Of a stretch of DNA of 64,000 bases, positions 3,568 through 48,304 are shown piece after piece. Made by a program: the position numbers and the translations under genes. Source of the stretch: Escherichia coli (GTDB lineage: Bacteria; Pseudomonadota; Gammaproteobacteria; Enterobacterales; Enterobacteriaceae). The notes beneath the pieces are model-generated. The model worked only from the letters and a program-made list of their open reading frames with translations, was not told where the DNA came from and ran no database searches. Location: the NCBI RefSeq assembly GCF_050920415.1, contig NZ_CP169309.1; one strand, 5' to 3'. Every line of letters begins with the position of its first letter. The stretch's first letter is position 1.

Positions 3568-3685
3568 AACGCCTCCAGCCTCATTACTTACCCGCACAAA
3601 ATAGAATTGTGCTGTACAAACGTCCAGTTTGAAAGAAGTTTCCTGCGAGGCGCTACGCAAAACGATCCTTAATTTTTATTATTTT

Positions 3686-3722
3686 ATCCCACAATATGAG
3701 ACGTAGTTTATATTGTGGGATA
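3686..3722. promoter_or_regulatory. Perfect 13-bp inverted repeat TATCCCACAATAT-N11-ATATTGTGGGATA, candidate operator in rmuC/IclR-gene divergent spacer
   Basis: Read directly; lies 58-94 bp upstream of the IclR-family gene ATG. Confidence 0.5.
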
Positions 3723-3779
3723 TATCACCTTTTCCCCACGTCATTATGTGGAACACTTCAGCAATATCATCAGGAGAAA

Positions 3780-4550
3780 CGTATGGCAGATACCTCTTCA
3801 ACCACCGCTGGCGCACAAACGTTATTACGCGGGCTGGCGGTTCTTAATGCTGTTTATAACGGCTGCCATGACCTGAAAAGTATCGGCGAGTTCACCGGCA
3901 CGACCCGGAGCACAACCCATCGTTTAGTCACCGTTCTGGTGGAACAACGCTACCTGCGCCACGTCCCAACGCAGGGCTACCAACTGGGCGCCAAACTGAT
4001 CGAATTCGGTGCCAGAGCGCTGGAAAGCACCTCGCTGTACGAAGTTGCGCTGCCCGTTTTGCAACGCCTTGCCCGTTACACCCTGGACACCGTGCATCTG
4101 GGGATCGTTGAAGGCGACGAAGTGCTGTATCTGGAGAAGATCAACAGCCAGCGCGGGCTGGAAATGCGCTCACGCCCAGGCCATCGCATGCCACTGGCAA
4201 TCACCGGCATCGGCAAGGCATTGATCCTCAACCGAACAGAAGAAGAGTGGCGCACGCTGTTTAAGACCTGTGGTGATGAAACAAAACTGGGCGCATTTAT
4301 TCAGAACATGCGTCGTTATGCCGCCAGTGGTTTTGCTTTTGATCTGGAAGAGAACGAGCCGACTATCCGTTGCGTTGCAGCGCCGGTTTACAACGCCCGG
4401 GATGAAATTGTGGCGGCTATTTCTGTCGCCAGTACCACTACGTATATGTCACTGGCGCGTCTGGAAGAACTGGCACCTTACGTCAAATCCTGTGCAGAAG
4501 AGATATCCGCTGAACTGGGCTGGGGTAAGCACGTTCACAAAAATAAATAA
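3780..4550 (+). CDS. IclR-family transcriptional regulator, 256 aa
   Basis: Track frame 3696..4550; start set at ATG 3780 (MADTSSTTAGAQTLLRGLAVLNAV...) with AGGAG 6 nt upstream; N-terminal HTH then effector domain typical of IclR/KdgR-type regulators. Confidence 0.8.
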   Translation, partial: RMADTSSTTAGAQTLLRGLAVLNAVYNGCHDLKSIGEFTGTTRSTTHRLVTVLVEQRYLRHVPTQGYQLGAKLIEFGARALESTSLYEVALPVLQRLARYTLDTVHLGIVEGDEVLYLEKINSQRGLEMRSRPGHRMPLAITGIGKALILNRTEEEWRTLFKTCGDETKLGAFIQNMRRYAASGFAFDLEENEPTIRCVAAPVYNARDEIVAAISVASTTTYMSLARLEELAPYVKSCAEEISAELGWGKHVHKNK

Positions 4551-4573
4551 ACCATGACTAAAGGAAACGGCTA

Positions 4574-5578
4574 ATGTCGGGAAACACCTCATTTATTGCC
4601 CTGGACTGGGGAACGTCATCGCTTCGGGCATGGCGTTTTGGCGACTCACCCAATCCACAAGAAAAACGTGAATTCCCGTGGGGGATCATGAAATTACCCT
4701 CCCAGGCAGCAACACGTGAGGACGCTTTCCACGATACGTTTTTACGTGTCTGCGGCGACTGGCTGGCACAATCCCCATGCCCGATTCTGGCTTGCGGCAT
4801 GATCGGCAGTGCGCAAGGGTGGCAACCCGCAGCTTATTTACCTTGCCCGGTCACTCTCGAGGGTCTGGCAAAGCAGTTGACGCCTGTTATCTACCAGCAG
4901 CAGACAATGCTGCACATCATTCCCGGCGTGATTAAAGAAGGTGAAATGCCCGAAGTGATGCGTGGCGAAGAGACACAAATCTTCGGTGCTATCTCGATGG
5001 AACCGGCCCTGCAAAACGCGCTCCGCCAGGGTATGCCTGTGCTGATTGGCTTACCTGGCACACATGCGAAATGGGCGGTAGTTGAAAACAACACCATTAC
5101 CGATTTTCGAACCTTTATGACAGGCGAGTTATTTGATGTTTTATCCCGCCATTCGATTCTCGGTGCCACCATGCGTTCGGGAGATGAACCGCACTGGGAT
5201 GCCTTCGCCCACGGGCTGACAGCGGCACAAGAGCATCATCAGACCGGATTATTATCGACGCTGTTTTCGACCCGTTCGCGCCTGCTGACCAGTAATCTTA
5301 CGCCGTCCTCACAGGGGGATTACCTTTCAGGATTACTGATAGGCCATGAATTATGCGGTCTGGCATCCAGTTTGCTACGTGATTTACCCGCCACAACACC
5401 GATCGCCTTAATCGGTAGCGCCACTCTGAACAGCCGCTATTCACAAGCATTCAGCCACGTTTTTCCCGACAGACAGCTACACGCCATTCCTAATGCCACT
5501 GAACAGGGGTTATGGCGAATCGCCCACGCTGCCGGGCTACTCTCCACCAACGCCAGGGAATGTACTCATGCCATTTAA
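4574..5578 (+). CDS. 2-dehydro-3-deoxygalactonokinase (DgoK)-family sugar-acid kinase, 334 aa
   Basis: MSGNTSFIALDWGTSSLRAW..., ...MRGEETQIFGA..., ...FRTFMTGELFD... align with my recollection of E. coli DgoK; about 40 aa longer at C-terminus. Confidence 0.75.
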   Translation: MSGNTSFIALDWGTSSLRAWRFGDSPNPQEKREFPWGIMKLPSQAATREDAFHDTFLRVCGDWLAQSPCPILACGMIGSAQGWQPAAYLPCPVTLEGLAKQLTPVIYQQQTMLHIIPGVIKEGEMPEVMRGEETQIFGAISMEPALQNALRQGMPVLIGLPGTHAKWAVVENNTITDFRTFMTGELFDVLSRHSILGATMRSGDEPHWDAFAHGLTAAQEHHQTGLLSTLFSTRSRLLTSNLTPSSQGDYLSGLLIGHELCGLASSLLRDLPATTPIALIGSATLNSRYSQAFSHVFPDRQLHAIPNATEQGLWRIAHAAGLLSTNARECTHAI

Positions 5579-6197
5579 TACGCTTTTGCAAAAAACCGGG
5601 TTAGTCGCCATTTTACGCGGCGTGAAACCGGATGAGATTGTCGCCATCGGTGAAAAGCTGTATGCCTCTGGATTTCGCCTGATTGAGATTCCCATGAACT
5701 CGCCGGAGCCGTTGCAAAGTATCAGTTTACTGCGCGACGCCCTGCCTAAGGACTGCCTGGTCGGAGCCGGAACTGTGCTTTCGGTGGAGCACGTCGTCGC
5801 GGTTAAAGAGGCTGGAGGCCAGATTATCGTGATGCCGCATTGCGATACTGCGGTGATCCGTCGTGCCCGTGCGCTGGGTATGTATTGTGCGCCTGGCGTC
5901 GCTACGCCCACCGAAGCTTTTGCTGCCATTGAGCATGGTGCTAATGCCATCAAGCTGTTCCCGGCTGAACAAATTACGCCTGAAGTCACCAAAGCCTGGC
6001 GTGCGGTTATTCCACAATCCGTTCCGATGTTACCGGTTGGCGGTATCACTCCGGAAACCATGGCGCGTTATCTGAGCCACGGTGCAAACGGCTTTGGTCT
6101 CGGTTCTGCGCTTTATCGCCCTGGCATGACGCCAGAGCAGGTCTATAAAAATGCAGTACTGTTTATGAACGCATGGACCAATTTAAACAACAACTAA
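5568..6197 (+). CDS. KDPG/KDPGal-aldolase family protein (DgoA-like), 209 aa
   Basis: Track frame 5493..6197; start set at ATG 5568 (MPFNTLLQKTGLVAILRGVKPDE...), overlapping the kinase gene by 11 nt; aldolase motifs AILRG, GAGTVL, PVGGIT. Confidence 0.75.
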   Translation: MPFNTLLQKTGLVAILRGVKPDEIVAIGEKLYASGFRLIEIPMNSPEPLQSISLLRDALPKDCLVGAGTVLSVEHVVAVKEAGGQIIVMPHCDTAVIRRARALGMYCAPGVATPTEAFAAIEHGANAIKLFPAEQITPEVTKAWRAVIPQSVPMLPVGGITPETMARYLSHGANGFGLGSALYRPGMTPEQVYKNAVLFMNAWTNLNNN

Positions 6198-6221
6198 CTG
6201 ATAAATAAGGATATAAAAACA

Positions 6222-7196
6222 ATGATAAAACATCTTACCTTACCGAAAAAAATGGCTGCAATGGTACTCCTTGCCGGCGCTTCCCTCAGCACTGCGCCTG
6301 TGCAGGCGGCCTCCTACCCAACCAAACAGATCGAGTTAGTCGTACCCTACGCGGCCGGAGGCGGTACGGATCTGGTTGCCCGTGCCTTTGCTGATGCCGC
6401 CAAAAACCATTTGCCCGTCAGCATCGGGGTTATCAATAAACCTGGCGGTGGCGGCGCTATCGGCCTGAGTGAAATCGCCGCTGCCCGCCCTAACGGTTAC
6501 AAAATGGGTTTAGGCACGGTTGAACTGACCACCCTTCCCAGCCTCGGAATGGTGCGTTTTAAAACCAGCGACTTTAAACCCATTGCCCGTCTGAACGCGG
6601 ATCCGGCTGCTATCACCGTCCGTTCTGATGCGCCGTGGAATAGCTATGAAGAATTTATGACTTACGCCAAAGCGAATCCCGGAAAAGTACGCATTGGTAA
6701 CTCAGGCACCGGAGCAATCTGGCATCTGGCGGCAGCTGCACTGGAAGACAAAACGGGCGTGAAGTTTTCTCATGTCCCATATGACGGCGCAGCCCCTGCC
6801 ATTACAGGCCTGTTAGGCGGGCATATTGAAGCGGTTTCCGTAAGCCCAGGTGAAGTTATCAATCATGTGAAAGGCGGCAAGCTGAAGACACTGGTAGTGA
6901 TGGCGGATGAACATATGAAAACCATGCCTGACGTACCGACGTTAAAAGAGAAAGGCGTTGATCTCTCCATCGGCACCTGGCGCGGTCTGATCGTGTCGCA
7001 AAAAACGCCGCAGGATGTGGTTGATGTTCTGGCTAAGGCCGCAAAAGAGACGGCTGAAGAGCCTGCATTCCAGGATGCTCTGCAAAAGTTGAATCTCAAC
7101 TATGCATGGCTTGATGGTGCCAGCTTCCAGACCCAAATCAACGAACAGGAAAAGTACTTTGACGAGTTACTAACTCGGCTGGGCTTGAAAAAATAA
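6222..7196 (+). CDS. tctC: Tripartite tricarboxylate transporter (TTT) periplasmic substrate-binding protein, TctC/Bug family, 324 aa
   Basis: N-terminal signal peptide (MIKHLTLPKKMAAMVLLAGASLSTAPVQA); AAGGGTDL motif typical of TctC/Bug proteins. Confidence 0.8.
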   Translation: MIKHLTLPKKMAAMVLLAGASLSTAPVQAASYPTKQIELVVPYAAGGGTDLVARAFADAAKNHLPVSIGVINKPGGGGAIGLSEIAAARPNGYKMGLGTVELTTLPSLGMVRFKTSDFKPIARLNADPAAITVRSDAPWNSYEEFMTYAKANPGKVRIGNSGTGAIWHLAAAALEDKTGVKFSHVPYDGAAPAITGLLGGHIEAVSVSPGEVINHVKGGKLKTLVVMADEHMKTMPDVPTLKEKGVDLSIGTWRGLIVSQKTPQDVVDVLAKAAKETAEEPAFQDALQKLNLNYAWLDGASFQTQINEQEKYFDELLTRLGLKK

Positions 7197-7212
7197 TCCC
7201 GAGGTACGGTCG

Positions 7213-7719
7213 ATGAACACAAAACAGTCTGTTGCTCAACTCGCCGTACCGCACCGCAAGCGCCTTTCATCCACTGTGGTGGTGGCGCTGTTACTTTGTG
7301 TGGTTGCTGGCGCGGTGATAATTAATGCCGCTGATTTTCCAGCAACTGCCATTGAAACGGATCCCGGTGCAAGTGCCTTCCCTACTTTCTATGCCTGCGC
7401 TCTGATTGTGCTCGCTGTCTTACTGGTGATACGCGATCTTTTGCTGGCAAAACCAGTCCCTTGCGCCAACGCACAGGAAAAACCGGCATTAAGGAAAACG
7501 GCAACAGGAATTGCGGCAACCGCGTTTTATATTGTGGCGATGAGCTACTGCGGTTATCTCATTACTACTCCTGTTTTCCTCATCGTCATTATGACGTTGA
7601 TGGGCTACAGGCGATGGGTACTCACACCGGGTATTGCGCTGCTGTTAACGGCAATCCTCTGGTTGCTGTTTGTCGAAGCGTTACAGGTGCCATTGCCTGT
7701 CGGCACATTTTTCGAATAA
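7213..7719 (+). CDS. tctB: TTT small membrane subunit TctB, 168 aa
   Basis: Small hydrophobic multi-TM protein between tctC-like and tctA-like genes. Confidence 0.75.
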   Translation: MNTKQSVAQLAVPHRKRLSSTVVVALLLCVVAGAVIINAADFPATAIETDPGASAFPTFYACALIVLAVLLVIRDLLLAKPVPCANAQEKPALRKTATGIAATAFYIVAMSYCGYLITTPVFLIVIMTLMGYRRWVLTPGIALLLTAILWLLFVEALQVPLPVGTFFE

Positions 7720-7731
7720 CAGGGGCCTGCA

Positions 7732-9222
7732 ATGTTTGAAAGTGAACTTTTAACTCAGGGGTTTTCGACATTACTCAGTAATCCTCAGGCGCTGCTGTTT
7801 GCCACGTTTGGAGTGATGCTGGGTATTATGATTGGCGCTCTGCCTGGCCTGACAGCGACCATGGGTGTGGCGATTTTGCTGCCTTTCACCTACGGCATGG
7901 AGCCTGTTTCTGGCTTATTGATGATTTGCGGTGTCTTTTTTGGTGGTGTGTATGGTGGTTCTATCACCGCAATTTTGCTCAAAATTCCCGGTACACCTGC
8001 CGCCGCTGCCACCGCCATTGACGGATATGAGCTGACGAAGCAGGGAAAAGCCGGGCTGGCGTTAAGTGCCGCCACGTTCTCTTCTTTTAGCGGTGGAACG
8101 CTCAGCATTATCGTATTGATGTTTCTCTCTCCGGTACTTGCCAGTTGGGCGTTGAAATTTAGTGCCTCGGAGTCCTTCGCCCTGGCAACCTTCGGGCTAA
8201 GTATTATTGCCAGTATTTCCGGTGAGTCACTGATTAAAGGGCTGATTGCCGGGGTTGGCGGATTGCTGATCGCAACGATAGGCCTTGATCCAATGGGCGG
8301 TTTTCCACGCTTTACAGGTGGATTTGTGGAGCTGATGAATGTGCCATTTATCCCGGTGATGATTGGTCTGTTTGCTGCTTCAGAAGCATTCCGCTCTATG
8401 GAGCAAAACCAGCAAATTCGTCAGGGGGCGAAGGTGGCTATCGGCAGTCTGTTACTGCCCTGGCAAACACTACGCCGCATCGCATTAACCATTTTGCGCT
8501 CATCAGGATTAGGGGTTTTTATCGGCATGATCCCCGGTGCGGGGGCAGATATTGCAGCTTTTGTTGCCTATAACGAAACTCGTCGTTTCAGTAAGACGCC
8601 TGAAAACTTTGGTAAGGGTGAGATTAAGGCGGTGGCCTCCTGTGAGGCAGGCGCGAATGGCTGCACCGGTGGCGCATTGTTACCTATGCTGACGTTGGGG
8701 ATCCCAGGCGATGCGGTAACTGCCATCATGCTGGGCGCGTTAACGTTACAAGGGATGCAGCCAGGCCCACTGATGTTTACCGACCACGGCGATATGGTTT
8801 ATACGCTGTTTGTCGGCATGATCTTTTGTTACTTCATGCTGCTAGTTCTTGGACTGCTCTCTTTGAAAGTCATCGGTAACGTGGTGAAGATCCCCGGCAA
8901 TATTCTCACGCCGATGATCCTCGCGCTTTGTGTTGTTGGGACTTATGCGCTGAACAACAGCCTGTTTGATGTTGGCATTATGCTGATTGCAGGCGTGGTG
9001 GGCTATTTCATGCAAAAAGGGGGGTATCCGGCGTCACCCGTAGTGCTGGCATTGATTATGGGGCCAATGGCGGAAAGTAATTTTCGCCGTGCGCTGTCGC
9101 TTTCAGGGGGGTCACTCGACTTCCTGTATACCCGACCGATAACCCTGGCATTGCTGACTCTGGCAGCCTTTACGCTACTGACGCCAATAATACGCAAAAT
9201 TATGCGCTTACGGCGTCAGTAA
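7732..9222 (+). CDS. tctA: TTT large permease subunit TctA, 496 aa
   Basis: About 500-aa polytopic membrane protein with Gly-rich helices, directly after tctB-like gene. Confidence 0.8.
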   Translation: MFESELLTQGFSTLLSNPQALLFATFGVMLGIMIGALPGLTATMGVAILLPFTYGMEPVSGLLMICGVFFGGVYGGSITAILLKIPGTPAAAATAIDGYELTKQGKAGLALSAATFSSFSGGTLSIIVLMFLSPVLASWALKFSASESFALATFGLSIIASISGESLIKGLIAGVGGLLIATIGLDPMGGFPRFTGGFVELMNVPFIPVMIGLFAASEAFRSMEQNQQIRQGAKVAIGSLLLPWQTLRRIALTILRSSGLGVFIGMIPGAGADIAAFVAYNETRRFSKTPENFGKGEIKAVASCEAGANGCTGGALLPMLTLGIPGDAVTAIMLGALTLQGMQPGPLMFTDHGDMVYTLFVGMIFCYFMLLVLGLLSLKVIGNVVKIPGNILTPMILALCVVGTYALNNSLFDVGIMLIAGVVGYFMQKGGYPASPVVLALIMGPMAESNFRRALSLSGGSLDFLYTRPITLALLTLAAFTLLTPIIRKIMRLRRQ

Positions 9223-9276
9223 TTGATATCGCTCCCCGACGTTGGGGAGTATGAGACTGATGACAAACGCTAAATT

Positions 9277-9376
9277 GCCTGATGCGCTGCGCTTATCAGG
9301 CCTACCACAGAAATGCAATATATTGAATTTGCATGCTTTTGTAGGCCGGATAAGGCGATCACGCCGCATCCGGCAT
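9277..9376. repeat. REP pair (BIME) in tctA-udp spacer
   Basis: gcctgatgcgctgcgcttatcaggcctac and gtaggccggataaggcgatcacgccgcatccggca, inverted REP consensus units. Confidence 0.8.
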
Positions 9377-9407
9377 GAACAAAGCACACGTTAACAACAA
9401 TCGGAAT

Positions 9408-9437
9408 GCTCCCCGACGTTGGGGAGCGTTTTTTTAT
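9408..9437 (+). terminator. Hairpin GCTCCCCGACGTTGGGGAGC followed by T7 run; intrinsic-terminator-like, oriented for plus strand
   Basis: Stem CTCCCC/GGGGAG then TTTTTTTATTT; sits just before udp stop; a copy of the hairpin without T-run occurs at 9231-9249. Confidence 0.5.
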
Positions 9438-10198
9438 TTCAGCAGACGACGCGCCGCTTCCACCACGATTTTCACCGCATGGCTTTCGGTTTGTTTCATC
9501 GTCTCAGCATTCGGGATCTCTTGCTGGGTACGATTGACGATAACGCCCGCCACCATACCCGCACGCAGGCCCTGGCTTGCACACATGGTCAGCAGGGTTG
9601 CAGATTCCATTTCATAGTTCATTACGCCCATCGCCTGCCACTCTTCCATAGAACCTTTAAAGTGACGGACTACACGACCAGAGTAAGTATCGTAACGTTC
9701 CTGACCTGGGTAGAAGGTATCAGAAGAAGCCGTCACACCAACGTGAGTGGTGGCACCAATTGACTTCGCCGCTTCAACCAGCGCGGTCGTACATTCGAAA
9801 TCTGCGACAGCCGGGAACTCCAGCGGAGCGAAGTGCAGGCTCGCGCCATCCAGACGAACAGACGCCGTGGTCACCAGCACATCACCCACATTAATATGCG
9901 GCTGGATAGCGCCCGTTGTACCGATACGCAGGAAGGTGCGAATGCCCAGCTGTGCCAGCTCTTCAACCGCAATAGAGGTAGACGGGCCGCCGATACCGGT
10001 AGAGCAGACGATAACAGGTTTACCATCCAGCTCTGCACGCCAGGTGGTGAATTCGCGGTGAGATGCCAGCTTAACCGGCTTATCCATCAGCGCGGCGATC
10101 TTTTCCACACGATCCGGGTCGCCAGGGACGATGGCAAGCGTAGCCCCTTGTAAATCGTTTTTAGTGAGGCCGAGATGAAAAACATCATACTTGGACAT
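9434..10198 (-). CDS. udp: Uridine phosphorylase, 254 aa
   Basis: Track [38 protein letters not shown]...; start set at second in-frame ATG (MSK...). Confidence 0.9.
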
Positions 10199-10269
10199 AT
10201 ACAACTCCTCTGTGAATCGGTTTAGTCAGAAGAAGCAAAAAGACACTTTACCGAAGGGTTTGACATTTT

Positions 10270-10345
10270 TTCGTGACACTCATCACCTTGATGCAAATGC
10301 GTTGCATAAATTTACCCAGCAAAAGTGATGCGAATCACATAAATC
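10270..10345 (-). promoter_or_regulatory. udp promoter region: two CRP-like sites flanking a TGCAA-repeat CytR-type element
   Basis: Minus-strand read: aTGTGAttcgcaTCACt and gGTGAtgagtgTCACg about 52 bp apart with ttgcaacgcatttgca between; matches known udp CRP/CytR architecture. Confidence 0.6.
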
Positions 10346-11272: not shown

Positions 11273-11663
11273 TTTCCTCTTAGTCTATATTTGAGATGGT
11301 GAGTGAACGAATGCGTTTTGCTGCCATCTCTGTCCCCCAAAAAATAATCAGTATGAATTGATTGGAGAGCACGACTCCGCTATTTGACCTTAAGAAAGTC
11401 GGCAAGTCATAGTCATAAATGAGTCTCTTCACTGGCAGACACCTTAAAGATTTACCATCAACTCCCATTCTCAAACAAACATTAATTATTATCAACACAT
11501 TCACATTAATTATAAATTATCTCAGACCTTCCTGATAAAAAGATATTAAAGTGAAACATTTTGTTTTTCACATTTTAGTTCATCCCTATTAGGCGTAAAT
11601 AAAGGTAAAAAATAACAATACTATTTTTCTTTCACAAAAGAATTAACAAAAGGTTTTTCAAGG

Positions 11664-12062
11664 ATGAGTGATATTATTTACCTGACCATAACCGGAGAAC
11701 AACACGGATGTATTTCCTCTCGTTGTGGAACGAGCACATCAATAGGTAATCGCTGGCAGATTGGTCATGAAGATGAAATCTTCGCGTTCTCGCTCTCTAA
11801 TAGTATTACGAATACAGGAAAAGGGTCACATTTGCATGGCCTTAGTTTCTGTAAGTTGATTGACAAAAGCTCCCCGTTACTTATTAACGCTATTAACAAT
11901 AACGAGCAGTTGTTCATGGAGTTTGACTTCTATCGGATCAATAGATTTGGTCGATGGGAGAAATATTACAACATTCAACTCCGCGGCGCGCTCTTATCAG
12001 CAATCAATCACCTGTTTACGGAGAACAATCTGGATACAGAAACCATCACTGTCAGTTATTAA
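11664..12062 (+). CDS. Hcp-family (T6SS tube protein) domain ORF, 132 aa, ends at TAA in frame with the downstream toxin-like ORF
   Basis: MSDIIYLTITGEQHG...GKGSHLHGLSFCKLIDKSSPLL...FDFYRINRFGRWEKYYNIQL fits the Hcp-family pattern; AT-rich. Confidence 0.7.
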   Translation: MSDIIYLTITGEQHGCISSRCGTSTSIGNRWQIGHEDEIFAFSLSNSITNTGKGSHLHGLSFCKLIDKSSPLLINAINNNEQLFMEFDFYRINRFGRWEKYYNIQLRGALLSAINHLFTENNLDTETITVSY

Positions 12063-12107
12063 TATATACTCTCCAGGCATCTGATTGCTAATACTGAATT
12101 TAGTTAT

Positions 12108-12812
12108 TTGGCATTTCCCGATAACTACAATCGTCTGTTTATACCACGGCCAAAAACTAAAGATGATAATGGCCTCAAAACACTCAATAGTAAAGCTGTT
12201 GGCAGACTGCTTGCTGCTGGCGGCATATACAATGGGAATATCGAAGGATTCAGGGAAACAGCAAACAAGTTGGGGGGAGATGCACCTGCTGGTTACGATC
12301 AAGTTATGGATAACAAAGGGTTACTCATCGCTGGTGCTTCAATAGTTGCTGGAGCAGTTCTGGGGAGAATGAGACTCCCTGATTTGGAATCACTTGAGCA
12401 TTTCGGAGCCAGAGGAGCAGTATCAGGAAGACCATTTAATCCCGACCTTGCCGGTGGTCCAATAGAAAATCTGACGACAGATGGCGTAACAATCAACAGG
12501 GAAGGTATCGCTATTGTTGAAAAACACATAGCCAGATTTGGTCATGACCCTGTAAATGAAGTGATGATCAATAGACTGAAAGACATTGAGAAAGGAAAAA
12601 TCCCCCCAGAACAAGTAGATCTTAACTTCTATACTCATGAATGTCGGGAATATCAGCGTTACTGTAATCTTGGTTGGGAAACAGGACAACCTGATGGTGA
12701 CGCAGGCTATGCACTCTGGAATCATACGCATACTGCTACTCTAGAAGATTATAAACTTAAGGGAGAACTTAATGACTTATACCACCAGGATGCACTTGAC
12801 TATGATAACTGA
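12108..12812 (+). CDS. Toxin-like C-terminal domain ORF (class undetermined), same frame as upstream Hcp ORF; 234 aa from TTG
   Basis: Same reading frame as 11664..12062 with only one stop (TAA 12060-12062) and 15 open codons between; no ATG or SD of its own. Confidence 0.6.
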   Translation: MAFPDNYNRLFIPRPKTKDDNGLKTLNSKAVGRLLAAGGIYNGNIEGFRETANKLGGDAPAGYDQVMDNKGLLIAGASIVAGAVLGRMRLPDLESLEHFGARGAVSGRPFNPDLAGGPIENLTTDGVTINREGIAIVEKHIARFGHDPVNEVMINRLKDIEKGKIPPEQVDLNFYTHECREYQRYCNLGWETGQPDGDAGYALWNHTHTATLEDYKLKGELNDLYHQDALDYDN

Positions 12813-13047
12813 AACTGAAATTAACGTACTGAAAGTTATGGCTGAGAAAGATATAAACTGGAACTGGATGAATCTCGATCGCACACTATCTATAAGGCAA
12901 ATTCCAGGATTCGGTAATGTTGTTAACATTGTTAACAAATTAGCTAACGAGGGTTTGGTTATTATTGAGGATAGCGGACATAAGTCTATGCCTCACTACC
13001 ACGTTACTGAAAAGGGATACAATCTCGTGAAAAGTGAGAATAAATAA
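12802..13047 (+). CDS. Small putative immunity protein, 81 aa
   Basis: ATG at 12802 overlaps the toxin ORF stop (ATGATAACTGA); track frame 12772..13047. Confidence 0.55.
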   Translation: MITETEINVLKVMAEKDINWNWMNLDRTLSIRQIPGFGNVVNIVNKLANEGLVIIEDSGHKSMPHYHVTEKGYNLVKSENK

Positions 13048-13141
13048 CGTAGCGTTGATTACTGAACAAATCGCTCAGGATTATATTTTGCGAAAAAAAT
13101 GATTCGGTTATTTCTGTGTCTGAACGGCCGCAGATAGCAAA

Positions 13142-13165
13142 ATGGCTTCCGGTGATGGAAGCCAT
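13142..13165 (+). terminator. 9-bp stem hairpin ATGGCTTCC-ggtgat-GGAAGCCAT downstream of the islet
   Basis: Perfect inverted repeat read directly; weak T tract (cagattattgg). Confidence 0.3.
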
Positions 13166-13195
13166 CAGATTATTGGCAAAGTGCGTGTTGTTCAT

Positions 13196-13226
13196 GCCGG
13201 ATGCGGCGTGAACGCCTTATCTGGCC
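13196..13226. repeat. REP element
   Basis: gccggatgcggcgtgaacgccttatctggcc. Confidence 0.75.
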
Positions 13227-13333
13227 AACTAAATCTTGAAAATTCAATAAATTGAATAAATTATGTAGGCCTGGTATCAGGCAGTTTCGCCTCTTTCATC
13301 GTACTGCAATTTACAGTGACTCGTTAATACTCA

Positions 13334-15595
13334 TCATCCCCGACGCAAATTCTGCGCCGCCTGCACCATGTTCGCCAGTGCCGCGCGGGTTTCTGGCCAG
13401 CCGCGCGTTTTCAGGCCACAGTCCGGGTTGACCCACAGACGCTCTGCCGGAATGCGTTGTGCCGCTTTCTTCAGCAGGGACTCAATCCATTCCACGCTCG
13501 GTACGTTTGGCGAGTGAATGTCATAGACGCCAGGACCGATTTCATTCGGATAATCAAACTCTTCAAACGACTCCAGCAACTCCATGTCGGAACGCGAGGT
13601 TTCGATTGTGATGACGTCAGCATCCAGCGCCGCAATCGAATCCATGATGTCGTTGAACTCGCAGTAACACATGTGAGTGTGGATTTGCGTGTCATCTTTC
13701 GCTACGGCAGCGTTGATACGGAAAGCCTCCACGCCCCACTGGAGATAGGCATCCCAGTCGCTGCGACGCAGCGGTAAACCTTCGCGTAGCGCCGGTTCAT
13801 CAATCTGGATGATGCCAATTCCAGCGGCTTCCAGATCGGCCACTTCATCACGAAGCGCCAGCGCAATTTGTTTGGCGATGGTTTCACGGCTGACATCTTC
13901 ACGCGGGAACGACCAGCAGAGAATGGTCACCGGGCCAGTCAGCATCCCTTTCACCGGTTTATCAGTCAGAGATTGCGCATACTTCGCCCACTCCACGGTA
14001 ATCGGTGCCGGGCGGCTAACGTCACCAATAACAATCGGTGGCTTCACGCAGCGGGAACCGTAGCTCTGTACCCAACCGTTTTGCGTAAAGACAAAGCCAT
14101 CCAGGTGCTCGCCAAAGTATTCCACCATGTCATTACGCTCGGCCTCACCATGCACCAGCACATCCAGACCCAGACGTTCCTGCTCAACAATGGCCTGCTT
14201 GATATGTTCTGCAATGCCCGTGCGGTAGTTGTTGGCGTCGAGATTACCCTTTTTGAAATCCAGACGCAGGGTACGGATTTCTGTGGTTTGCGGGAAAGAG
14301 CCAATCGTGGTGGTCGGCCAGGCTGGCAGTTTAAAACGCGCACGCTGGGCTTCAGCACGCACTTCATAAACGTTCGCACGCTGGCTGTCCTGGGCTGTGA
14401 TCGCTGCCAGACGTTTTTCTACCGCCGGATTATGGACGCGGGTTGAGTGACGACGCGCCTGAATCGGAGCGCTCCACTCTGCCAGAGCTGCCGTGTCACC
14501 ACTGTTCAACGCATCGCGCAGCAGCGCCAGTTCATGGCATTTTTGCAGGGCGAAGGCAAACCAGCTTTTCACTTCCGCATCAAGACGCGTTTCCACACTC
14601 AGGTCGATAGGGCTGTGCAGCAATGAGCAGGAAGATGCCACCCACAAATCACGTTTGCCGACAATGTCCTTAATTTGCGCATATTTCTCGGTAAGATCGG
14701 CGCGCCAGACGTTACGACCATTGATAAGACCCGCAGACAGCAGCCAGTCAGAAGGCAGACGCTTGTGCAGTTCAGCAACGTCATCTTTACCATGTACGAG
14801 ATCGACATGCAGCCCCTGAACAGGCAGCGCAGTAATGGTGTCGAGGTTTGGCGTTACGCCTTCAAAATAGGTGGTCAGCAGCAGTTTCACCTGGCCCTGG
14901 AGCGCGTCGTAAGCGGGTTTATAGGCGTCCAGCCACGCCTGCGGCAGTTCCAGTACCAGAGCCGGTTCGTCGATCTGTACCCACTCAATGCCGCGTTTTG
15001 CCAGTTCTGCCAACACTTGCTGATAAACCGGCAGAATGTCGTTTAGCAGGCTCAGGCGATCAAACTGTTCACCTTTCACTTTACCCAGCCACAGGTAGGT
15101 AACCGGCCCCAGCAGCACGGGCTTGACCTTGTGGCCCAGCGCCAGCGCCTCGTCCACTTCCTCCAGCAGTTGCGTCCAGGTCAGTTTGAACTGTTGGCCT
15201 TTAACGAACTCCGGCACCATGTAGTGATAGTTGGTGTTAAACCATTTGGTCATTTCCGCTGCCGCCGCAGGTTCACCAGTCGGTGCACGTCCACGACCAA
15301 TACGGAACAGGGTGTCGATATCTACCGAACCATCTTTGTTCTGGTGACGCGCCGGAACGTTACCCAGCAGCAGGCTGGTGGTCAGGACATGATCGTACCA
15401 GGCAAAATCGCCCACCGGCAGCAGGTCGATACCTGCTTGCTTTTGTTGATCCCAGTGACGGGCACGTAATTCACGCCCAACCGCCAGCAGTTCTTCACGC
15501 GTGGAGTTCCCCGCCCAATAACTCTCTTGCGCTTTTTTCAGCTCGCGACGCAGGCCAACGCGAGGGAAACCGAGGGTGTGATTCAATATTGTCAT
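13334..15595 (-). CDS. metE: Cobalamin-independent methionine synthase, 753 aa
   Basis: [29 protein letters not shown]... full-length. Confidence 0.95.
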
Positions 15596-28365: not shown

Positions 28366-29130
28366 ATGGCGCATCGGCTACTCATTGGTAAAGGAATGAT
28401 CACCTTGAATCTCAAACGGATTTTTCTCGCCCTCACCTTACTTCCCTTGTTTGCTGTTGCCGCTGATGATTGCGCACTATCAGATCCGACACTGACCATA
28501 CAGGCGTATACCGTTAATCCTCAAACAGAGCGGGTGAAAATGTACTGGCAAAAAGCCAATGGCGAAGCGTGGGAAACGTTACATGCGCTGCTGACGGATA
28601 TTAATAGTCAGGGTCAGGTGCAAATGGCGATGAACGGCAGCATCTATGATGAAAGCTATGCGCCGCTCGGTTTGTACATCGAAAACGGTCAGCAGAAGGT
28701 GGCGTTAAATCTCGCTTCAGGTGAAGGGAATTTCTTTATCCGTCCTGGCGGTGTGTTTTATGTCGCGGGAGATAAAGTCGGCATCGTTCGTCTGGATGCC
28801 TTTAAAACCAGTAAAGAGATTCAGTTCGCGGTGCAGTCAGGGCCAATGTTGATGGAAAACGGCGTCATTAATCCGCGTATTCATCCCAACGTCGCCTCAC
28901 GCAAAATTCGTAACGGTGTTGGGATTAATAAACAAGGGAACGCCGTGTTTTTGTTGAGCCAGCAGGTGACAAATTTTTATGATTTTGCCTGTTATGCCAA
29001 AACGAAACTGAACGTTGAGCAACTGCTTTATCTTGATGGCACGATTTCACATATGTATGTGAAAGGCGGGGCAATCCCGTGGCAACGCTATCCTTTTGTT
29101 ACCATGATTTCCGTCGAGCAGAAAAGTTAA
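28366..29130 (+). CDS. yigE: YigE, secreted protein of unknown function, 254 aa
   Basis: MAHRLLIGKGMITLNLKRIFLALTLLPLFAVAADD..., signal peptide. Confidence 0.85.
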   Translation: MAHRLLIGKGMITLNLKRIFLALTLLPLFAVAADDCALSDPTLTIQAYTVNPQTERVKMYWQKANGEAWETLHALLTDINSQGQVQMAMNGSIYDESYAPLGLYIENGQQKVALNLASGEGNFFIRPGGVFYVAGDKVGIVRLDAFKTSKEIQFAVQSGPMLMENGVINPRIHPNVASRKIRNGVGINKQGNAVFLLSQQVTNFYDFACYAKTKLNVEQLLYLDGTISHMYVKGGAIPWQRYPFVTMISVEQKS

Positions 29131-29165
29131 AACAACCGTTTTGTGTCACTGAATATGGTGCAGAT

Positions 29166-29270
29166 GCCGGATGCGGCGCAAACGCCTTACCCGGCCTACA
29201 TGACATTGCAATTTATTGAATCTACATGATTTTGTAGGCCGGATAAGGTGCGCAGCACCGCATCCGGCAA
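29166..29270. repeat. REP pair (BIME) between yigE and uvrD
   Basis: gccggatgcggcgcaaacgccttacccggcctac ... gtaggccggataaggtgcgcagcaccgcatccggca. Confidence 0.8.
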
Positions 29271-29272
29271 CG

Positions 29273-31435
29273 TTATACCGTCTCCAGCCGGGCGTAAGCC
29301 GCCACCAGCCATTTAATACCCTGGCCCTGGAATGCCACCTGCAAACGGCTATGCTCACCGCTGCCTTCCATATTGACGATGGTGCCTTCACCAAACTTGG
29401 CGTGGCGTACGCGCTGGCCGAGCTTGTAGCCGCTGTCGTTCTCGACCATCGGCGTACCCATCCGTTGATGGCTGACCGGGCGGCTTACCGTAGCGCGTAA
29501 ACGCACCTCTTCCACACACTCTTCCGGCAGCTCACCAATAAAGCGCGACGGGCGATGGTAAACCTCTTTGCCATACAGACGGCGGGTTTCCGCGTAGGTC
29601 AGTGTCAGTTTCTGCATCGCGCGGGTTACGCCAACGTAGGCCAGACGGCGTTCTTCTTCCAGACGCCCGCCTTCATCCAGCGACATCTGGCTTGGGAACA
29701 TGCCCTCTTCCATACCAACAATAAACACCTGCGGGAATTCCAGACCTTTCGCCGAGTGTAGCGTCATCAGCTGTACCGCATCCTGCCAGGTATCCGCCTG
29801 CCCTTCACCTGCTTCCAGTGCCGCATGGGAGAGGAACGCCTGCAGCGGCATTAAATCTTCGTCTTCTTCGTTGTAGCTGAACTGGCGCGTTGCCGTCACC
29901 AGTTCCTCTAAGTTTTCGATACGCGTCTGGCCTTTTTCGCCCTTCTCCTGCTCGTACATGGTGCGCAGGCCGGAGTCTTTAATTACCCGGTCAGTCTGTA
30001 CATGCAGCGGCATATCGGCAGTTTCTTGCGCTAAGGCGTCGATCAGTTCCATAAACCGTTGCAAAGCGCTGGCAGCACGCCCGGCGAGCGCTTTTTCCTG
30101 CAATAATTCGCGGCACGCCTGCCAGAGTGTTAACTGGCGATCGCGCGATGTCTGACGTACCACGTCCAGCGTCCGGTCACCAATACCCCGCGTTGGCGTA
30201 TTCACCACGCGCTCAAAGGCCGCGTCGTCGTTACGGTTGGCAATCAGGCGCAGATACGAGAGCGCATCTTTGATTTCCTGGCGTTCGAAGAAGCGCATCC
30301 CGCCATAAATACGGTACGGCATACTGGCTTGTAATAACGCCTCTTCCAGCACGCGCGACTGGGCGTTGCTGCGATAGAGAATGGCGCACTCGGCGAGCGC
30401 CCCGCCCTTGTCCTGCCAGGTCTTGATGCGGTTAACCACAAAACGCGCTTCGTCGAGTTCGTTAAAAGCGCAATAGAGGGAAATCGGCTCACCGTCCGCG
30501 CCATCGGTCCACAACTTTTTACCCAAACGCCCGTTGTTGTTTTCAATCAGGGCGTTCGCCGCGCTCAGGATATTGCTGGTAGAGCGGTAGTTTTGCTCCA
30601 GACGGATAGTTTCGGCACCGGGGAAATCATTGAGGAAACGCTGAATATTCTCTACCTGCGCCCCACGCCAGCCGTAGATTGACTGGTCGTCATCGCCAAC
30701 AATCATCACTTTGCCAGTATCGCCCGCCAGCAGGCGGATCCACGCGTACTGAATGTTGTTGGTATCCTGGAATTCGTCCACCAGGATATTGGTAAAACGT
30801 TCGCGGTAGTGTTGCAGGATATGCGGCTTGTTAAGCCACAGTTCGTGGGCGCGTAGCAGTAGTTCAGCGAAGTCCACCAGGCCCGCGCGGTCACACGCTT
30901 CCTGATACGCCTGGTACACCTTCTGCCAGGTCTGCTCCACCGGATTACCGTAGCTTTGAATATGATGCGGACGCAGCCCTTCATCTTTCTGGCTGTTGAT
31001 GTACCACATTGCCTGGCGCGGCGGCCACTGCTTCTCGTCGAGGTTCATGGCTTTGATCAGACGCTTAAGCAGGCGCAGCTGGTCTTCGCTGTCGAGGATC
31101 TGGAAATCCTGCGGCAGGTTGGCGTCCATATGGTGCGCACGCAGCAGACGGTGTGCCAGCCCGTGGAAAGTGCCGACCCACATACCGCCCTGGCTGGTAC
31201 CCATCAGTTGCCCGATACGATGGCGCATTTCCGCCGCCGCTTTGTTGGTAAATGTCACCGCCATAATCGAGTACGGCGAGCAGTTTTCCACGCTCATCAG
31301 CCAGGCGATACGATGCACCAGTACGCGCGTCTTACCACTGCCCGCGCCCGCCAGCACCAAAAGGTTGCTGCGTGGCGCGGCCACCGCTTCGCGCTGTTTG
31401 TCATTAAGGCTGTCGAGCAGGTAAGAAACGTCCAT
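29273..31435 (-). CDS. uvrD: UvrD DNA helicase II, 720 aa
   Basis: Track frame extends to 31621; start set at MDVSYLLDSLNDKQREAVAAPRSNLLVLAGAGSGKTRV... Confidence 0.95.
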   Translation of the reverse strand: MDVSYLLDSLNDKQREAVAAPRSNLLVLAGAGSGKTRVLVHRIAWLMSVENCSPYSIMAVTFTNKAAAEMRHRIGQLMGTSQGGMWVGTFHGLAHRLLRAHHMDANLPQDFQILDSEDQLRLLKRLIKAMNLDEKQWPPRQAMWYINSQKDEGLRPHHIQSYGNPVEQTWQKVYQAYQEACDRAGLVDFAELLLRAHELWLNKPHILQHYRERFTNILVDEFQDTNNIQYAWIRLLAGDTGKVMIVGDDDQSIYGWRGAQVENIQRFLNDFPGAETIRLEQNYRSTSNILSAANALIENNNGRLGKKLWTDGADGEPISLYCAFNELDEARFVVNRIKTWQDKGGALAECAILYRSNAQSRVLEEALLQASMPYRIYGGMRFFERQEIKDALSYLRLIANRNDDAAFERVVNTPTRGIGDRTLDVVRQTSRDRQLTLWQACRELLQEKALAGRAASALQRFMELIDALAQETADMPLHVQTDRVIKDSGLRTMYEQEKGEKGQTRIENLEELVTATRQFSYNEEDEDLMPLQAFLSHAALEAGEGQADTWQDAVQLMTLHSAKGLEFPQVFIVGMEEGMFPSQMSLDEGGRLEEERRLAYVGVTRAMQKLTLTYAETRRLYGKEVYHRPSRFIGELPEECVEEVRLRATVSRPVSHQRMGTPMVENDSGYKLGQRVRHAKFGEGTIVNMEGSGEHSRLQVAFQGQGIKWLVAAYARLETV

Positions 31436-46894: not shown

Positions 46895-46930
46895 GCCGGC
46901 GCTATCGCTACATCGGGCCACACTGACCTT

Positions 46931-47034
46931 GCCGGATGCGGCGTGAACGCCTTATCCGGCCTACAAGCCTTGCAAATTCAATAAATTGCAGCGTCCTGTA
47001 GGCCGGATAAGATGCGTCAGCATCGCATCCGGCA
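46931..47034. repeat. REP pair (BIME) between convergent aslA and aslB
   Basis: gccggatgcggcgtgaacgccttatccggcctac ... gtaggccggataagatgcgtcagcatcgcatccggca. Confidence 0.8.
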
Positions 47035-47068
47035 ATCAACCGCAGGCGGCCACAAAATGGCTGCTTTT

Positions 47069-48304
47069 TTACTTATTCACCACCATCAAATGCGCCTGCA
47101 TAATGTCGCTGGCCGGGCGACCGTGCGCCAGCAAATCAGCCATTGCTTTAAGATATGGCGGTAGATAGCGGAAATAACGCTGATACCCGGCACACAAATA
47201 ATTCAGCCCCGGCTTACCGCTGGCATCGAGCATAAAGCGATGTTTCGGGCAGCCTCCCCAACATGCTTTTAACACGTTACAACTGCGACACTGCGCCGGT
47301 AACAGCTTAAATTTATCTTCTCCAAACACCTGCTGCTGCGGGGAATCTACCATTTCTGCAATTGTTTGCTGAAGCATATTCCCCAGTCGATATTGCGGAT
47401 AAACATAGTGATCGCAGGCGTAAACGTCGCCGTTGTGTTCGACAATCACCGAGCGTCCACAAGTCGGCTGATGATGGCAAACCGCACCCGGCGCACCGAC
47501 AAAATTGGCAAACGCCCATTCGATATTCATCACGAAAATCTTGCCGACGTCACGTTTGATCCAGTGGTCAAAAATTGCCACCAGAAACTCACCGAACTCA
47601 TCGGGGCGCACCGACCATTCTGTCAGTTCCCCCTGAATATCACCAGGCGCATGTAATTTCAGTCCATTGCGGGCAGCTGTTTCATCAGCCAGGCGCTCCA
47701 CCACCGGAATAAACTGGATAAACTCAACGCCTGCATTGCACAAAAAATCATAAACCTGTAACGGTTGCTGCGCGCTGGTGCGGTTGACACAGACCAGCAC
47801 GTTATAGTCGACATGATGTTTTTGCAGGAGCGTCAGGGCACGCATCACCAGCTTATGCGTGGGTCTGCCACCTTTGGTCACGCGATAATGATTGTGGATC
47901 TCAGCCGGACCGTCCAGCGATAACCCAACCAGAAAATGATTTTCTGCCAGAAATGCACACCATTCATCATCGAGCAGCACACCGTTAGTCTGAAAGCTGT
48001 TACTTATCTTCCTGCCAGCACCATATTTCGCCTGTAGCGCCACGGCACGTCGGTAAAAATCCAGCCCGAGTAACGTTGGTTCGCCGCCCTGCCAGGTAAA
48101 AGCCACTTCGTTTTGGGGTTCGCTGGCGGCGATATAGTGACGGACATACGCTTCCAGCGTGTCATCGTCCATATGCGCAACTGGCTTTTCGCGGTAAAGG
48201 GATTGTTTTTCGAGATAAAAACAGTAGTCACAGTTCAGATTACAATCGGAACCGCTTGGTTTCGCCATCACATGAAAAGCACGCGTTGGAACCTGTTGCA
48301 GCAT
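47069..48304 (-). CDS. aslB: AslB anaerobic sulfatase-maturating radical-SAM enzyme, 411 aa
   Basis: Track frame to 48334; start set at MLQQVPTRAFHVMAKPSGSDCNLNCDYCFY... (CxxxCxxC radical-SAM motif). Confidence 0.9.
   Translation of the reverse strand: MLQQVPTRAFHVMAKPSGSDCNLNCDYCFYLEKQSLYREKPVAHMDDDTLEAYVRHYIAASEPQNEVAFTWQGGEPTLLGLDFYRRAVALQAKYGAGRKISNSFQTNGVLLDDEWCAFLAENHFLVGLSLDGPAEIHNHYRVTKGGRPTHKLVMRALTLLQKHHVDYNVLVCVNRTSAQQPLQVYDFLCNAGVEFIQFIPVVERLADETAARNGLKLHAPGDIQGELTEWSVRPDEFGEFLVAIFDHWIKRDVGKIFVMNIEWAFANFVGAPGAVCHHQPTCGRSVIVEHNGDVYACDHYVYPQYRLGNMLQQTIAEMVDSPQQQVFGEDKFKLLPAQCRSCNVLKACWGGCPKHRFMLDASGKPGLNYLCAGYQRYFRYLPPYLKAMADLLAHGRPASDIMQAHLMVVNK

Follow-up and report, generated by a model that had tools for sequence, protein, structure and literature searches.

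A polymorphic BIME-1 bracketed by terminator hairpins between tctA and udp of Escherichia coli, and the probable recombinational origin of its exact flanking repeat

In the stretch of Escherichia coli DNA analysed here (64,000 nt, hereafter the window), the convergent genes tctA and udp are separated by a 211-bp spacer that contains two hairpins and, between them, a bacterial interspersed mosaic element (BIME). The arrangement is a BIME-1, polymorphic between strains, with a terminator hairpin on either side; the locus and the allele are new, while the kind of element is well known. In the window the two hairpins are exact direct repeats of each other, an arrangement that resembles a target-site duplication. 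The comparison of alleles suggests instead that the exact repeat is probably the product of homologous (allelic) recombination between a long allele, which carries the BIME, and a short, BIME-less allele of the class that we call S3.

The tctA-udp spacer and its alleles

The gene order in the window is ubiE and rmuC on the minus strand, then plus-strand genes for an IclR-family regulator, a 2-dehydro-3-deoxygalactonokinase and the matching aldolase, followed by tctC, tctB and tctA, and finally udp (minus strand) and ysgA (plus strand). Gene names were taken from NCBIfam and from the RefSeq annotation of an identical record (NZ_CP169399.1, strain MFDS1022581). On the rmuC side, the sequence held in common with K-12-type genomes stops after ...GCGAGGCGCTACGCAAAA, and on the udp side it restarts with the last two udp codons, some 13 nt past the hairpin, in agreement with the preliminary description of this DNA, which had placed the right-hand junction of the tct segment at the hairpin. 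The Udp protein has 254 aa, with an extra C-terminal Lys, in tct-carrying genomes, as compared with 253 aa in K-12-type genomes.

A TctA-based locus search of relatives recovered the order rmuC-iclR-dgoK-dgoA-tctCBA-udp-ysgA in E. whittamii, Buttiauxella warmboldiae, Klebsiella spallanzanii and K. indica. Phytobacter massiliensis showed the same order from iclR to ysgA, with no rmuC match in the DNA compared. The segment had been called an island in the preliminary description; a recent island between rmuC and udp was ruled out by the presence of the same gene order at the same locus in related species and genera. Since this order is conserved in E. whittamii, Buttiauxella and Klebsiella, the comparison indicates that the tct segment is an old resident of the rmuC-udp gap that is missing from many E. 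coli. E. whittamii, Buttiauxella and both Klebsiella species each have a hairpin of their own between tctA and udp, and a search of the GTDB species representatives with the hairpin-plus-tail pattern gave no match.

The 19-mer GCTCCCCGACGTTGGGGAG is present in two exact plus-strand copies only, at 9231-9249 and 9408-9426, 177 bp apart from start to start. It is near-palindromic, and its complement matches at the same two sites. Shuffled windows averaged 0.02 matches and none of 100 shuffles equalled the observed count, while a repeat search of positions 9100-9550 returned this pair as the sole direct repeat. Both copies reported previously are exact, the end at 9427 given for the second one counting the closing C of the hairpin, with the repeat itself being 19 nt. 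Copy 1 starts 8 nt past the tctA stop codon (9220-9222); the sequence after it is TATGAGACTG and, as had been described, contains no T-run. Copy 2 is followed by C-G-TTTTTTT-ATTT, in which the closing C is at 9427 and the T-run, at 9429-9435, overlaps the udp stop codon (TAA, minus strand, 9434-9436). Exactly one REP pair lies between the two copies, and the bracketing of a BIME by the hairpins was confirmed in the form of one complete 158-bp BIME-1. The coordinates of these features are collected in Table 1.

Table 1. Features of the tctA-udp region and marker types along the window
Feature	Positions	Strand	Remarks
tctA, tripartite tricarboxylate transporter permease, end of the iclR-dgoK-dgoA-tctCBA block	7732-9222	+	ORF; RefSeq annotation; Pfam TctA on the identical product
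Backbone-type markers	7794-8229		9 of 10 diagnostic sites
S3-type markers	8286-8331		6 sites, also in some long alleles
Backbone-type markers	8368, 8370		
Putative imported S3-type tract in the tctA 3' end, minimum extent	8616-9159	.	11 of 11 consecutive S3 sites; T at 9159 is S3-only
Left flank of hairpin 1, long-allele type	9192-9230	.	A at 9192, T at 9223; all seven S3 have C
Hairpin 1 (copy 1, 9231-9249)	9231-9250	+	predicted RNA stem-loop, -13.5 kcal/mol; without U-tract; common to all alleles; with the BIME, specific to long alleles
BIME-1-type element, one complete unit	9251-9407	.	inter-repeat block 9250-9407, 158 bp; paralogue alignments
BIME outer left motif	9251-9276		
Short Z1-like REP, GCCTGATGCG...TTATCAGGCCTAC	9277-9305		29 nt; full unit GCCTGATGCGCTGCGCTTATCAGGCCTAC
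BIME linker	9306-9340		35 nt
IHF-like site ATTCAATATATTG	9316-9328	-	within the linker
Inverted Y-like REP, GTAGGCCGGATAAGGCG...CATCCGGC	9341-9374		34 nt; full unit GTAGGCCGGATAAGGCGATCACGCCGCATCCGGC
BIME outer right motif	9375-9407		
Hairpin 2 (copy 2, 9408-9426, plus closing C at 9427)	9408-9427	+	loop GACGTTG (9415-9421), hairpin-1/S3 type
G + T7 + ATTT tail, U-tract of the predicted tctCBA terminator	9428-9439	+	overlaps the udp stop; G+7T variant as in S3 short alleles; with the hairpin 2 loop, S3-type
udp, uridine phosphorylase, 254 aa	9434-10198	-	backbone-type (N96-like) at 14 of 14 diagnostic sites from 9650 on
Stretch with diagnostic sites absent	9440-9649		
Backbone-type (N96) markers	9650-10331		14 of 14 sites

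The assignment of the element is based on its REPs, its linker and its paralogues. The two REPs are inverted with complementary arms, and their CTAC and GTAG ends face the linker. We take the short one to be z1 and the other to be y, judging from the REP consensus sequences and from the published definition of the element. By that definition, a BIME-1 consists of z1 and y REPs with a long conserved L linker, often with an IHF site (PMC3333891), and such elements occur as single copies of about 140 bp whose presence or absence varies between strains (PMC1187871, PMC3333891). The 158-bp block aligned end to end with the fdhE-yiiF intergenic repeat (positions 2-156, 87.5-87.9% identity) and over positions 9-157 with a copy near yajD, the identity to the two copies being 84-88% over the full length. 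As the homology to these paralogues stops within 1-2 nt of the junctions, the inter-hairpin block is exactly one repeat unit with its outer motifs. The 35-nt linker is conserved in the fdhE-yiiF and E. whittamii copies. Its IHF-like site has one mismatch to WATCAANNNNTTR, and such matches are near chance in the window (69 observed vs 53 expected). A search of Rfam returned sub-threshold matches only, to the REP-derived families naRNA4 and ES036. A further trait of BIME-1 elements is mobilisation or cleavage by TnpA_REP (RAYT) at CT dinucleotides.

The tct segment is carried by 1,456 of 5,426 complete E. coli genomes, which fall into two forms. The short form, TGATATC-hairpin-C(G)T6-7ATTT, has no BIME, is 177 bp shorter and was found in about 1,439 complete genomes; the long form, in which hairpin 1, the single intergenic BIME unit, hairpin 2 and the T-run follow one another, was found in 17. 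In E. whittamii, hairpin 1 and the BIME are located as in the long form and hairpin 2 is absent, and K-12-type genomes, which have no tct segment (K-type form), have an unrelated canonical udp terminator. In 16 of the 17 long-form genomes hairpin 2 is GCTCCCCTAAGCCAGGGAGC, with the loop TAAGCCA; compared with hairpin 1, the arms GCTCCCC...GGGAG are the same and five of the seven central bases differ, so that 14 of 19 positions are identical. The strain of the window was the only one in the RefSeq set with two copies of hairpin 1 (1,457 places in 1,456 genomes), and a separate assembly, AP025751.1 (L128, GCA_030295195.1), carries the same exact-repeat allele with one difference in 4,491 bp. The BIME itself showed no differences over 158 positions from those of five other long alleles.

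Duplicated hairpins were not seen in genomes lacking both the tct segment and the BIME, the hairpin being found only in tct-carrying genomes and at one site in each. Neither hairpin occurred outside the tctA-udp site in the E. coli genomes searched. No short allele with the TAAGCCA loop was found, a form that would have meant either deletion at the left arm or an ancestral TAAGCCA terminator. A metagenome scan for variants of the distal hairpin found nothing, and a scan for hairpin 1 returned 21 contigs, all with the common short GAAGTT allele and with no new long forms.

Marker mosaic and origin of the exact repeat

To place the window among these alleles, NJ trees rooted on E. whittamii were built from 2.96 kb of its left flank and 1.65 kb of its right flank. 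They contained two clades, one with all long alleles, the window and the short-form strain N96, and the other with the common short alleles. In both flank trees the window and N96 were sisters nested within the long alleles, indicating that the exact repeat and the short spacer of N96 are both derived. No difference between the window and N96 was seen in 1,425 bp of tctC, tctB and tctA, and on the udp side they differed at 3 of 1,650 bp, while 11 differing sites were observed in the last 361 bp of tctA.

The S3 class of short alleles was found via contigs encoding the exact TctA protein of the window. It comprises seven chromosomes of 4.46-4.73 Mb, none of them in the RefSeq E. coli set, and the species was confirmed for one of the seven, CP070951, which is E. 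fergusonii EF31 (PMC8826826). The TctA protein of EF31 is identical to that of the window. At the 3' end of tctA, where no allele sampled before S3 had matched the window, the S3 alleles differ from it at 1-2 positions in 361 bp. Their spacer reads TAACTGATATC-GCTCCCCGACGTTGGGGAGC-GTTTTTTTATTT, of which GCTCCCCGACGTTGGGGAGC-GTTTTTTTATTT is the same, base for base, as hairpin 2 and its tail in the window.

Diagnostic sites, defined as positions at which S3 is fixed and different from N96, revealed a mosaic along the window (Table 1). In agreement with this pattern, segment trees placed the window with N96 for tctB, the 5' part of tctA and udp, and with S3 for the final 600 bp of tctA. The presence of S3 markers on both sides of the hairpin 1-BIME block, together with long-allele markers that reach 39 bp or more leftward from hairpin 1 (a patch whose left edge is defined by two sites only, 9192 and 9223), argues for allelic recombination and not for transposition. 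The recipient would be a long allele with an N96-type backbone and the donor an S3-type short allele. A donor tract would have replaced the tctA 3' end, and the single hairpin of the donor would have aligned with hairpin 2 via the homology on its right, while hairpin 1 and the BIME (a 177-bp heterology), with some tens of bp on their left side, would have stayed recipient-type, the outcome being one hairpin in two identical copies. The junction would fall within the GCTCCCC arm (9408-9414) or immediately 5' of it, and the exchange could have involved one heteroduplex in which the loop was kept or two successive events. Neither the actual donor nor a parental long allele with the N96 backbone is among the sampled alleles.

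A point against this reading is that a crossover at hairpin 2 needs resolution in or near a 7-bp arm, which is short for RecA-dependent exchange unless it is the end of a longer, repaired heteroduplex. A further long allele, L086, has an S3-type tail and udp yet keeps the TAAGCCA loop, indicating that exchanges between S3 and long alleles with junctions at the hairpin occurred more than once. The same allele also lends itself to a different explanation, in which the loop of hairpin 2 was overwritten within one chromosome from hairpin 1, 177 bp upstream, by short-patch gene conversion or, in the course of replication, by two template switches between the direct repeats, and the tctA 3' end was imported separately. 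An L086-like ancestor, with the TAAGCCA loop and the G+7T tail, would need a change of the loop only; the arms supply 7 and 5 nt of identity around the 7-nt loop, and hairpin 2 is a direct and not an inverted copy. We consider this homogenisation rather unlikely, since it requires two independent events to place S3 markers on both sides of the hairpin 1-BIME block, and since the converted hairpin and tail equal the S3 allele base for base, for which a single allelic exchange is simpler. The correction of a quasipalindrome by template switching between inverted repeats was ruled out, as hairpin 2 is a direct copy of hairpin 1 (G8...T13) and not its inverted complement (A...C).

The preliminary description had attributed the duplication to insertion of the REP unit or of the island. 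In terms of the alleles now available, a BIME-1 would have transposed into the terminator hairpin of an S3-like short allele and duplicated 19 bp, in keeping with the single hairpin copy at empty sites and with the 158 bp between the copies being exactly one BIME-1 unit. Such a duplication would be longer than typical bacterial target-site duplications. The allele survey did not bear it out, as the BIME of the window occupies the place that it has in the 16 other long forms, all with a different distal loop, and matches several of these exactly in sequence, and the exact repeat is confined to one nested lineage with a mosaic of S3 and long markers. The long-allele markers, which reach at least 39 bp beyond hairpin 1 on its left, suggest that the element arrived with flanking homologous DNA. 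No recent donor copy of the BIME was found, the paralogues listed being at most 89% identical (seven further records fell in the 90-95% band). Filled and empty alleles at fdhE-yiiF show diverged junctions and no clean duplication, and the REP-associated Y1 transposase family, with its IS200/IS605-type chemistry, makes no direct repeats (PMC3333891). Taken together, these observations make a target-site duplication very improbable.

An assembly or polishing artefact that copied the hairpin 1 loop onto hairpin 2 in one genome would fit an exact repeat in 1 of 5,426 RefSeq complete E. coli genomes, but is scarcely credible, given the same allele in AP025751.1, two further similar places reported by a sequence index, and a clustered 5-base substitution with coherent changes in the flanking haplotype, unlike polishing indel errors.

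BIME loss, shared arms and predicted transcript ends

The short spacer of N96 was reproduced exactly by removing from the long allele L090 the DNA between its GGGAG right arms. Because N96 lacks short-allele markers, has TAAT after the stop codon and ends in a C-T7 tail as in L090, its spacer is most simply explained as a spontaneous deletion of the BIME from a long allele. The direct repeats of the hairpins would be substrates for BIME deletion, which would restore a short allele. In trees of the tct genes, the long-allele clade includes the S3 alleles and has the common short clade as its sister. Given these positions and the presence of the BIME in E. whittamii, the BIME is probably ancestral for these alleles and was lost repeatedly, a reading that is soft in view of the heavy recombination at the locus.

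The arms shared by hairpin 1 and the TAAGCCA form of hairpin 2 raise a separate question of origin. Chance is an unlikely source of the arm identity, the probability of having a 7-nt arm in common being about 6e-5. The arms could be the decayed footprint of an ancient BIME-1 insertion that duplicated the palindrome of the tctCBA terminator, for instance if the base of an extruded cruciform, or the CT dinucleotide that both arms contain, had been cut in a staggered fashion. We regard this as unlikely. The arm identity fits an old duplication with loop replacement and other origins alike, and such a footprint is absent at the fdhE-yiiF BIME-1 site. If true, it would be the first described target footprint of a BIME/REPIN insertion.

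At the RNA level, a terminator scan reported copy 2 on the plus strand (9403-9432, tail TTTATTTCAG) and left copy 1 unreported. This result and the position of the T-run bear out, as a prediction, the earlier view of the distal copy as a plus-strand terminator sitting on the udp stop. Hairpin 2 and its U-tract are therefore predicted to act in vivo as an intrinsic terminator for tctCBA. The predicted folding energies were -19.7 kcal/mol for hairpin 2 of the window, -17.2 kcal/mol for the short-allele hairpin and -15.6 kcal/mol for the TAAGCCA hairpin 2, as compared with the value of hairpin 1 in Table 1. Since the hairpin is a nearly perfect palindrome, pairing between its two direct copies is possible as well, and in the predicted minimum-free-energy fold they form a 23-bp helix enclosing the BIME. 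Hairpin 1 and the REPs are located in the tctA 3' UTR, where the REPs may act in termination or stability, by analogy with other 3' UTR REPs, which are reported to be partial Rho-dependent terminators and mRNA stabilisers and to track higher expression of convergent genes (bioRxiv 10.64898/2026.03.23.713779).

Significance and comparison with known systems

The locus leaves the current view of REP and BIME biology unaltered and is in itself ordinary. It offers a cautionary case, in which a perfect direct repeat around a small mobile-type element mimics a target-site duplication, yet would have arisen by homologous recombination. It also appears to record the loss of a BIME-1 via short repeats in two similar terminator hairpins, and an exchange between E. 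coli and E. fergusonii-type genomes. Differences between strains in the 3' UTR that tctCBA and udp have in common could change termination and mRNA stability while leaving the coding sequence untouched.

As a BIME-1 (= RIP/RIB; equivalent to REPIN), the element in the window has the inverted REP pair, the 35-nt linker and the single, non-tandem copy of its class, with an IHF-like motif that is near chance in frequency, and, as described for the class (PMC3333891, PMC1187871), it is found between convergent genes in some strains and not in others. It differs in being at a locus missing from K-12 and in being flanked by two arm-sharing, terminator-like hairpins, which were absent at the one other BIME-1 site compared (fdhE-yiiF).

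When compared with known intrinsic terminators, hairpin 2 has a GC-rich stem of 7-8 bp, extendable to 13, with the U-tract directly after it, and related genera also have a hairpin and T-run abutting the udp stop. In contrast to such terminators, hairpin 1 has no U-tract, and hairpin 2 has one only when read on the tctA strand; read on the udp strand, the hairpin comes after an A-tract and before the U-poor AUUCCGAUUGUUGUU. K-12-type genomes are unlike the window in that udp has a canonical terminator of its own. Given the A-tract and the U-poor tail on that strand, the hairpin would be weak at best as a udp terminator in tct-carrying strains, where udp termination is probably weak, or dependent on the REPs or Rho.

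Deletion between short direct repeats by slipped misalignment has reportedly been described by Lovett and colleagues, and the product predicted for deletion between the GGGAG arms is the spacer seen in N96, with the difference that the N96 case comes from comparison only. The direct repeat around a discrete mobile-type element and the single-copy empty sites are features that the window shares with target-site duplications; unlike these, its exact identity is found in one lineage and was traced by flanking markers to probable allelic recombination. The window also resembles the mosaic alleles of Escherichia that result from homologous recombination within and between species, with which it shares patchwork haplotypes and incongruent segment trees. 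It differs from them in that one junction coincides with an insertion/deletion heterology and would have created a perfect palindrome repeat, and not only a shuffling of SNPs.

Distribution of the tct block and its boundary at udp

The iclR-dgoK-dgoA-tctCBA block was found in the syntenic position, within the rmuC-udp gap, in E. whittamii, Buttiauxella warmboldiae, Klebsiella spallanzanii and K. indica, and in Phytobacter massiliensis the gene order from iclR to ysgA is that of the window. Only 1,456 of the 5,426 complete E. coli genomes carry the block, and K-12-type genomes have in its place 44 bp of unrelated sequence that includes the udp terminator. The block has the look of an ancestral segment that K-12-type strains have lost, and not of an acquired island. 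In tct-carrying genomes Udp has 254 aa and ends in Leu-Leu-Lys-stop, while in K-12-type genomes it has 253 aa and ends in Leu-Leu-stop, which places the limit of the variable segment at the udp stop codon. The corresponding codon of E. whittamii is a TGA created at the BIME edge. Separately, the annotation of strain 382634_2f marks tctA (L001, 83–1573) as a pseudogene interrupted by an internal stop, so not all carriers maintain the transporter.

Features discussed, with their positions in the window
Feature	Position	Description
iclR-dgoK-dgoA-tctCBA block	3661–9436	5.8 kb, between rmuC and udp (together with loci L006–L010)
First hairpin copy, pairing segment	9230–9252	arm of predicted helix
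Second hairpin copy, pairing segment	9406–9428	arm of predicted helix
udp 3' end	9434–9442	Leu-Leu-Lys-stop
ysgA-metE region	~11660–14400	right of ysgA
REP-pair or BIME-like element	~13160–13340	
REP-pair or BIME-like element	~29130–29310	
Perfect y-type REP	29234–29268	within preceding element
REP-pair or BIME-like element	~46900–47080	

Possible exchange of the locus between species

The TctA protein of the window is identical in seven chromosomes of 4.46–4.73 Mb (L124, L126, L127 and L129–L132), at least one of which is from E. fergusonii (CP070951, strain EF31). Their tctA DNA differs from that of the window by only ~1% and their udp by ~5%, and the divergent udp type of this group is also present in E. 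coli strain 2017-02-2CC (L086). Taken together, these sequence comparisons suggest that the tct locus was exchanged recently between species. The E. fergusonii GTDB representative was absent among the TctA matches.

On the other side of udp, the ysgA-metE region varies strongly among strains (window, L003 and L086–L100): the window's strain has an IS2 insertion there with a fragment of an HNH endonuclease, others have genes for cysteine hydrolase and DUF2877 proteins, some variants include a tssD gene or pseudogene, and in a further variant ysgA directly adjoins metE.

Pairing of the hairpin copies and other BIMEs

Because the repeated unit is a nearly perfect palindrome, the two direct hairpin copies are also complementary to each other (87% over 23 nt). 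The RNA fold of minimum free energy predicted for the plus strand (−96.8 kcal/mol, z=−8.4) joins them in a long-range helix around the BIME, a helix that would be a competitor of the local terminator hairpin.

The BIME-1 between fdhE and yiiF is polymorphic as well, with filled and empty alleles differing by ~149 bp (L004, 1340–1720, versus L122, 281–520). At the junctions on both sides the two alleles have strongly diverged sequences; more than a simple insertion or deletion therefore separates them. The three further REP-pair or BIME-like elements of the window each carry a ATTCAATAAATTG motif in the linker and belong to another subtype than the tctA-udp BIME.
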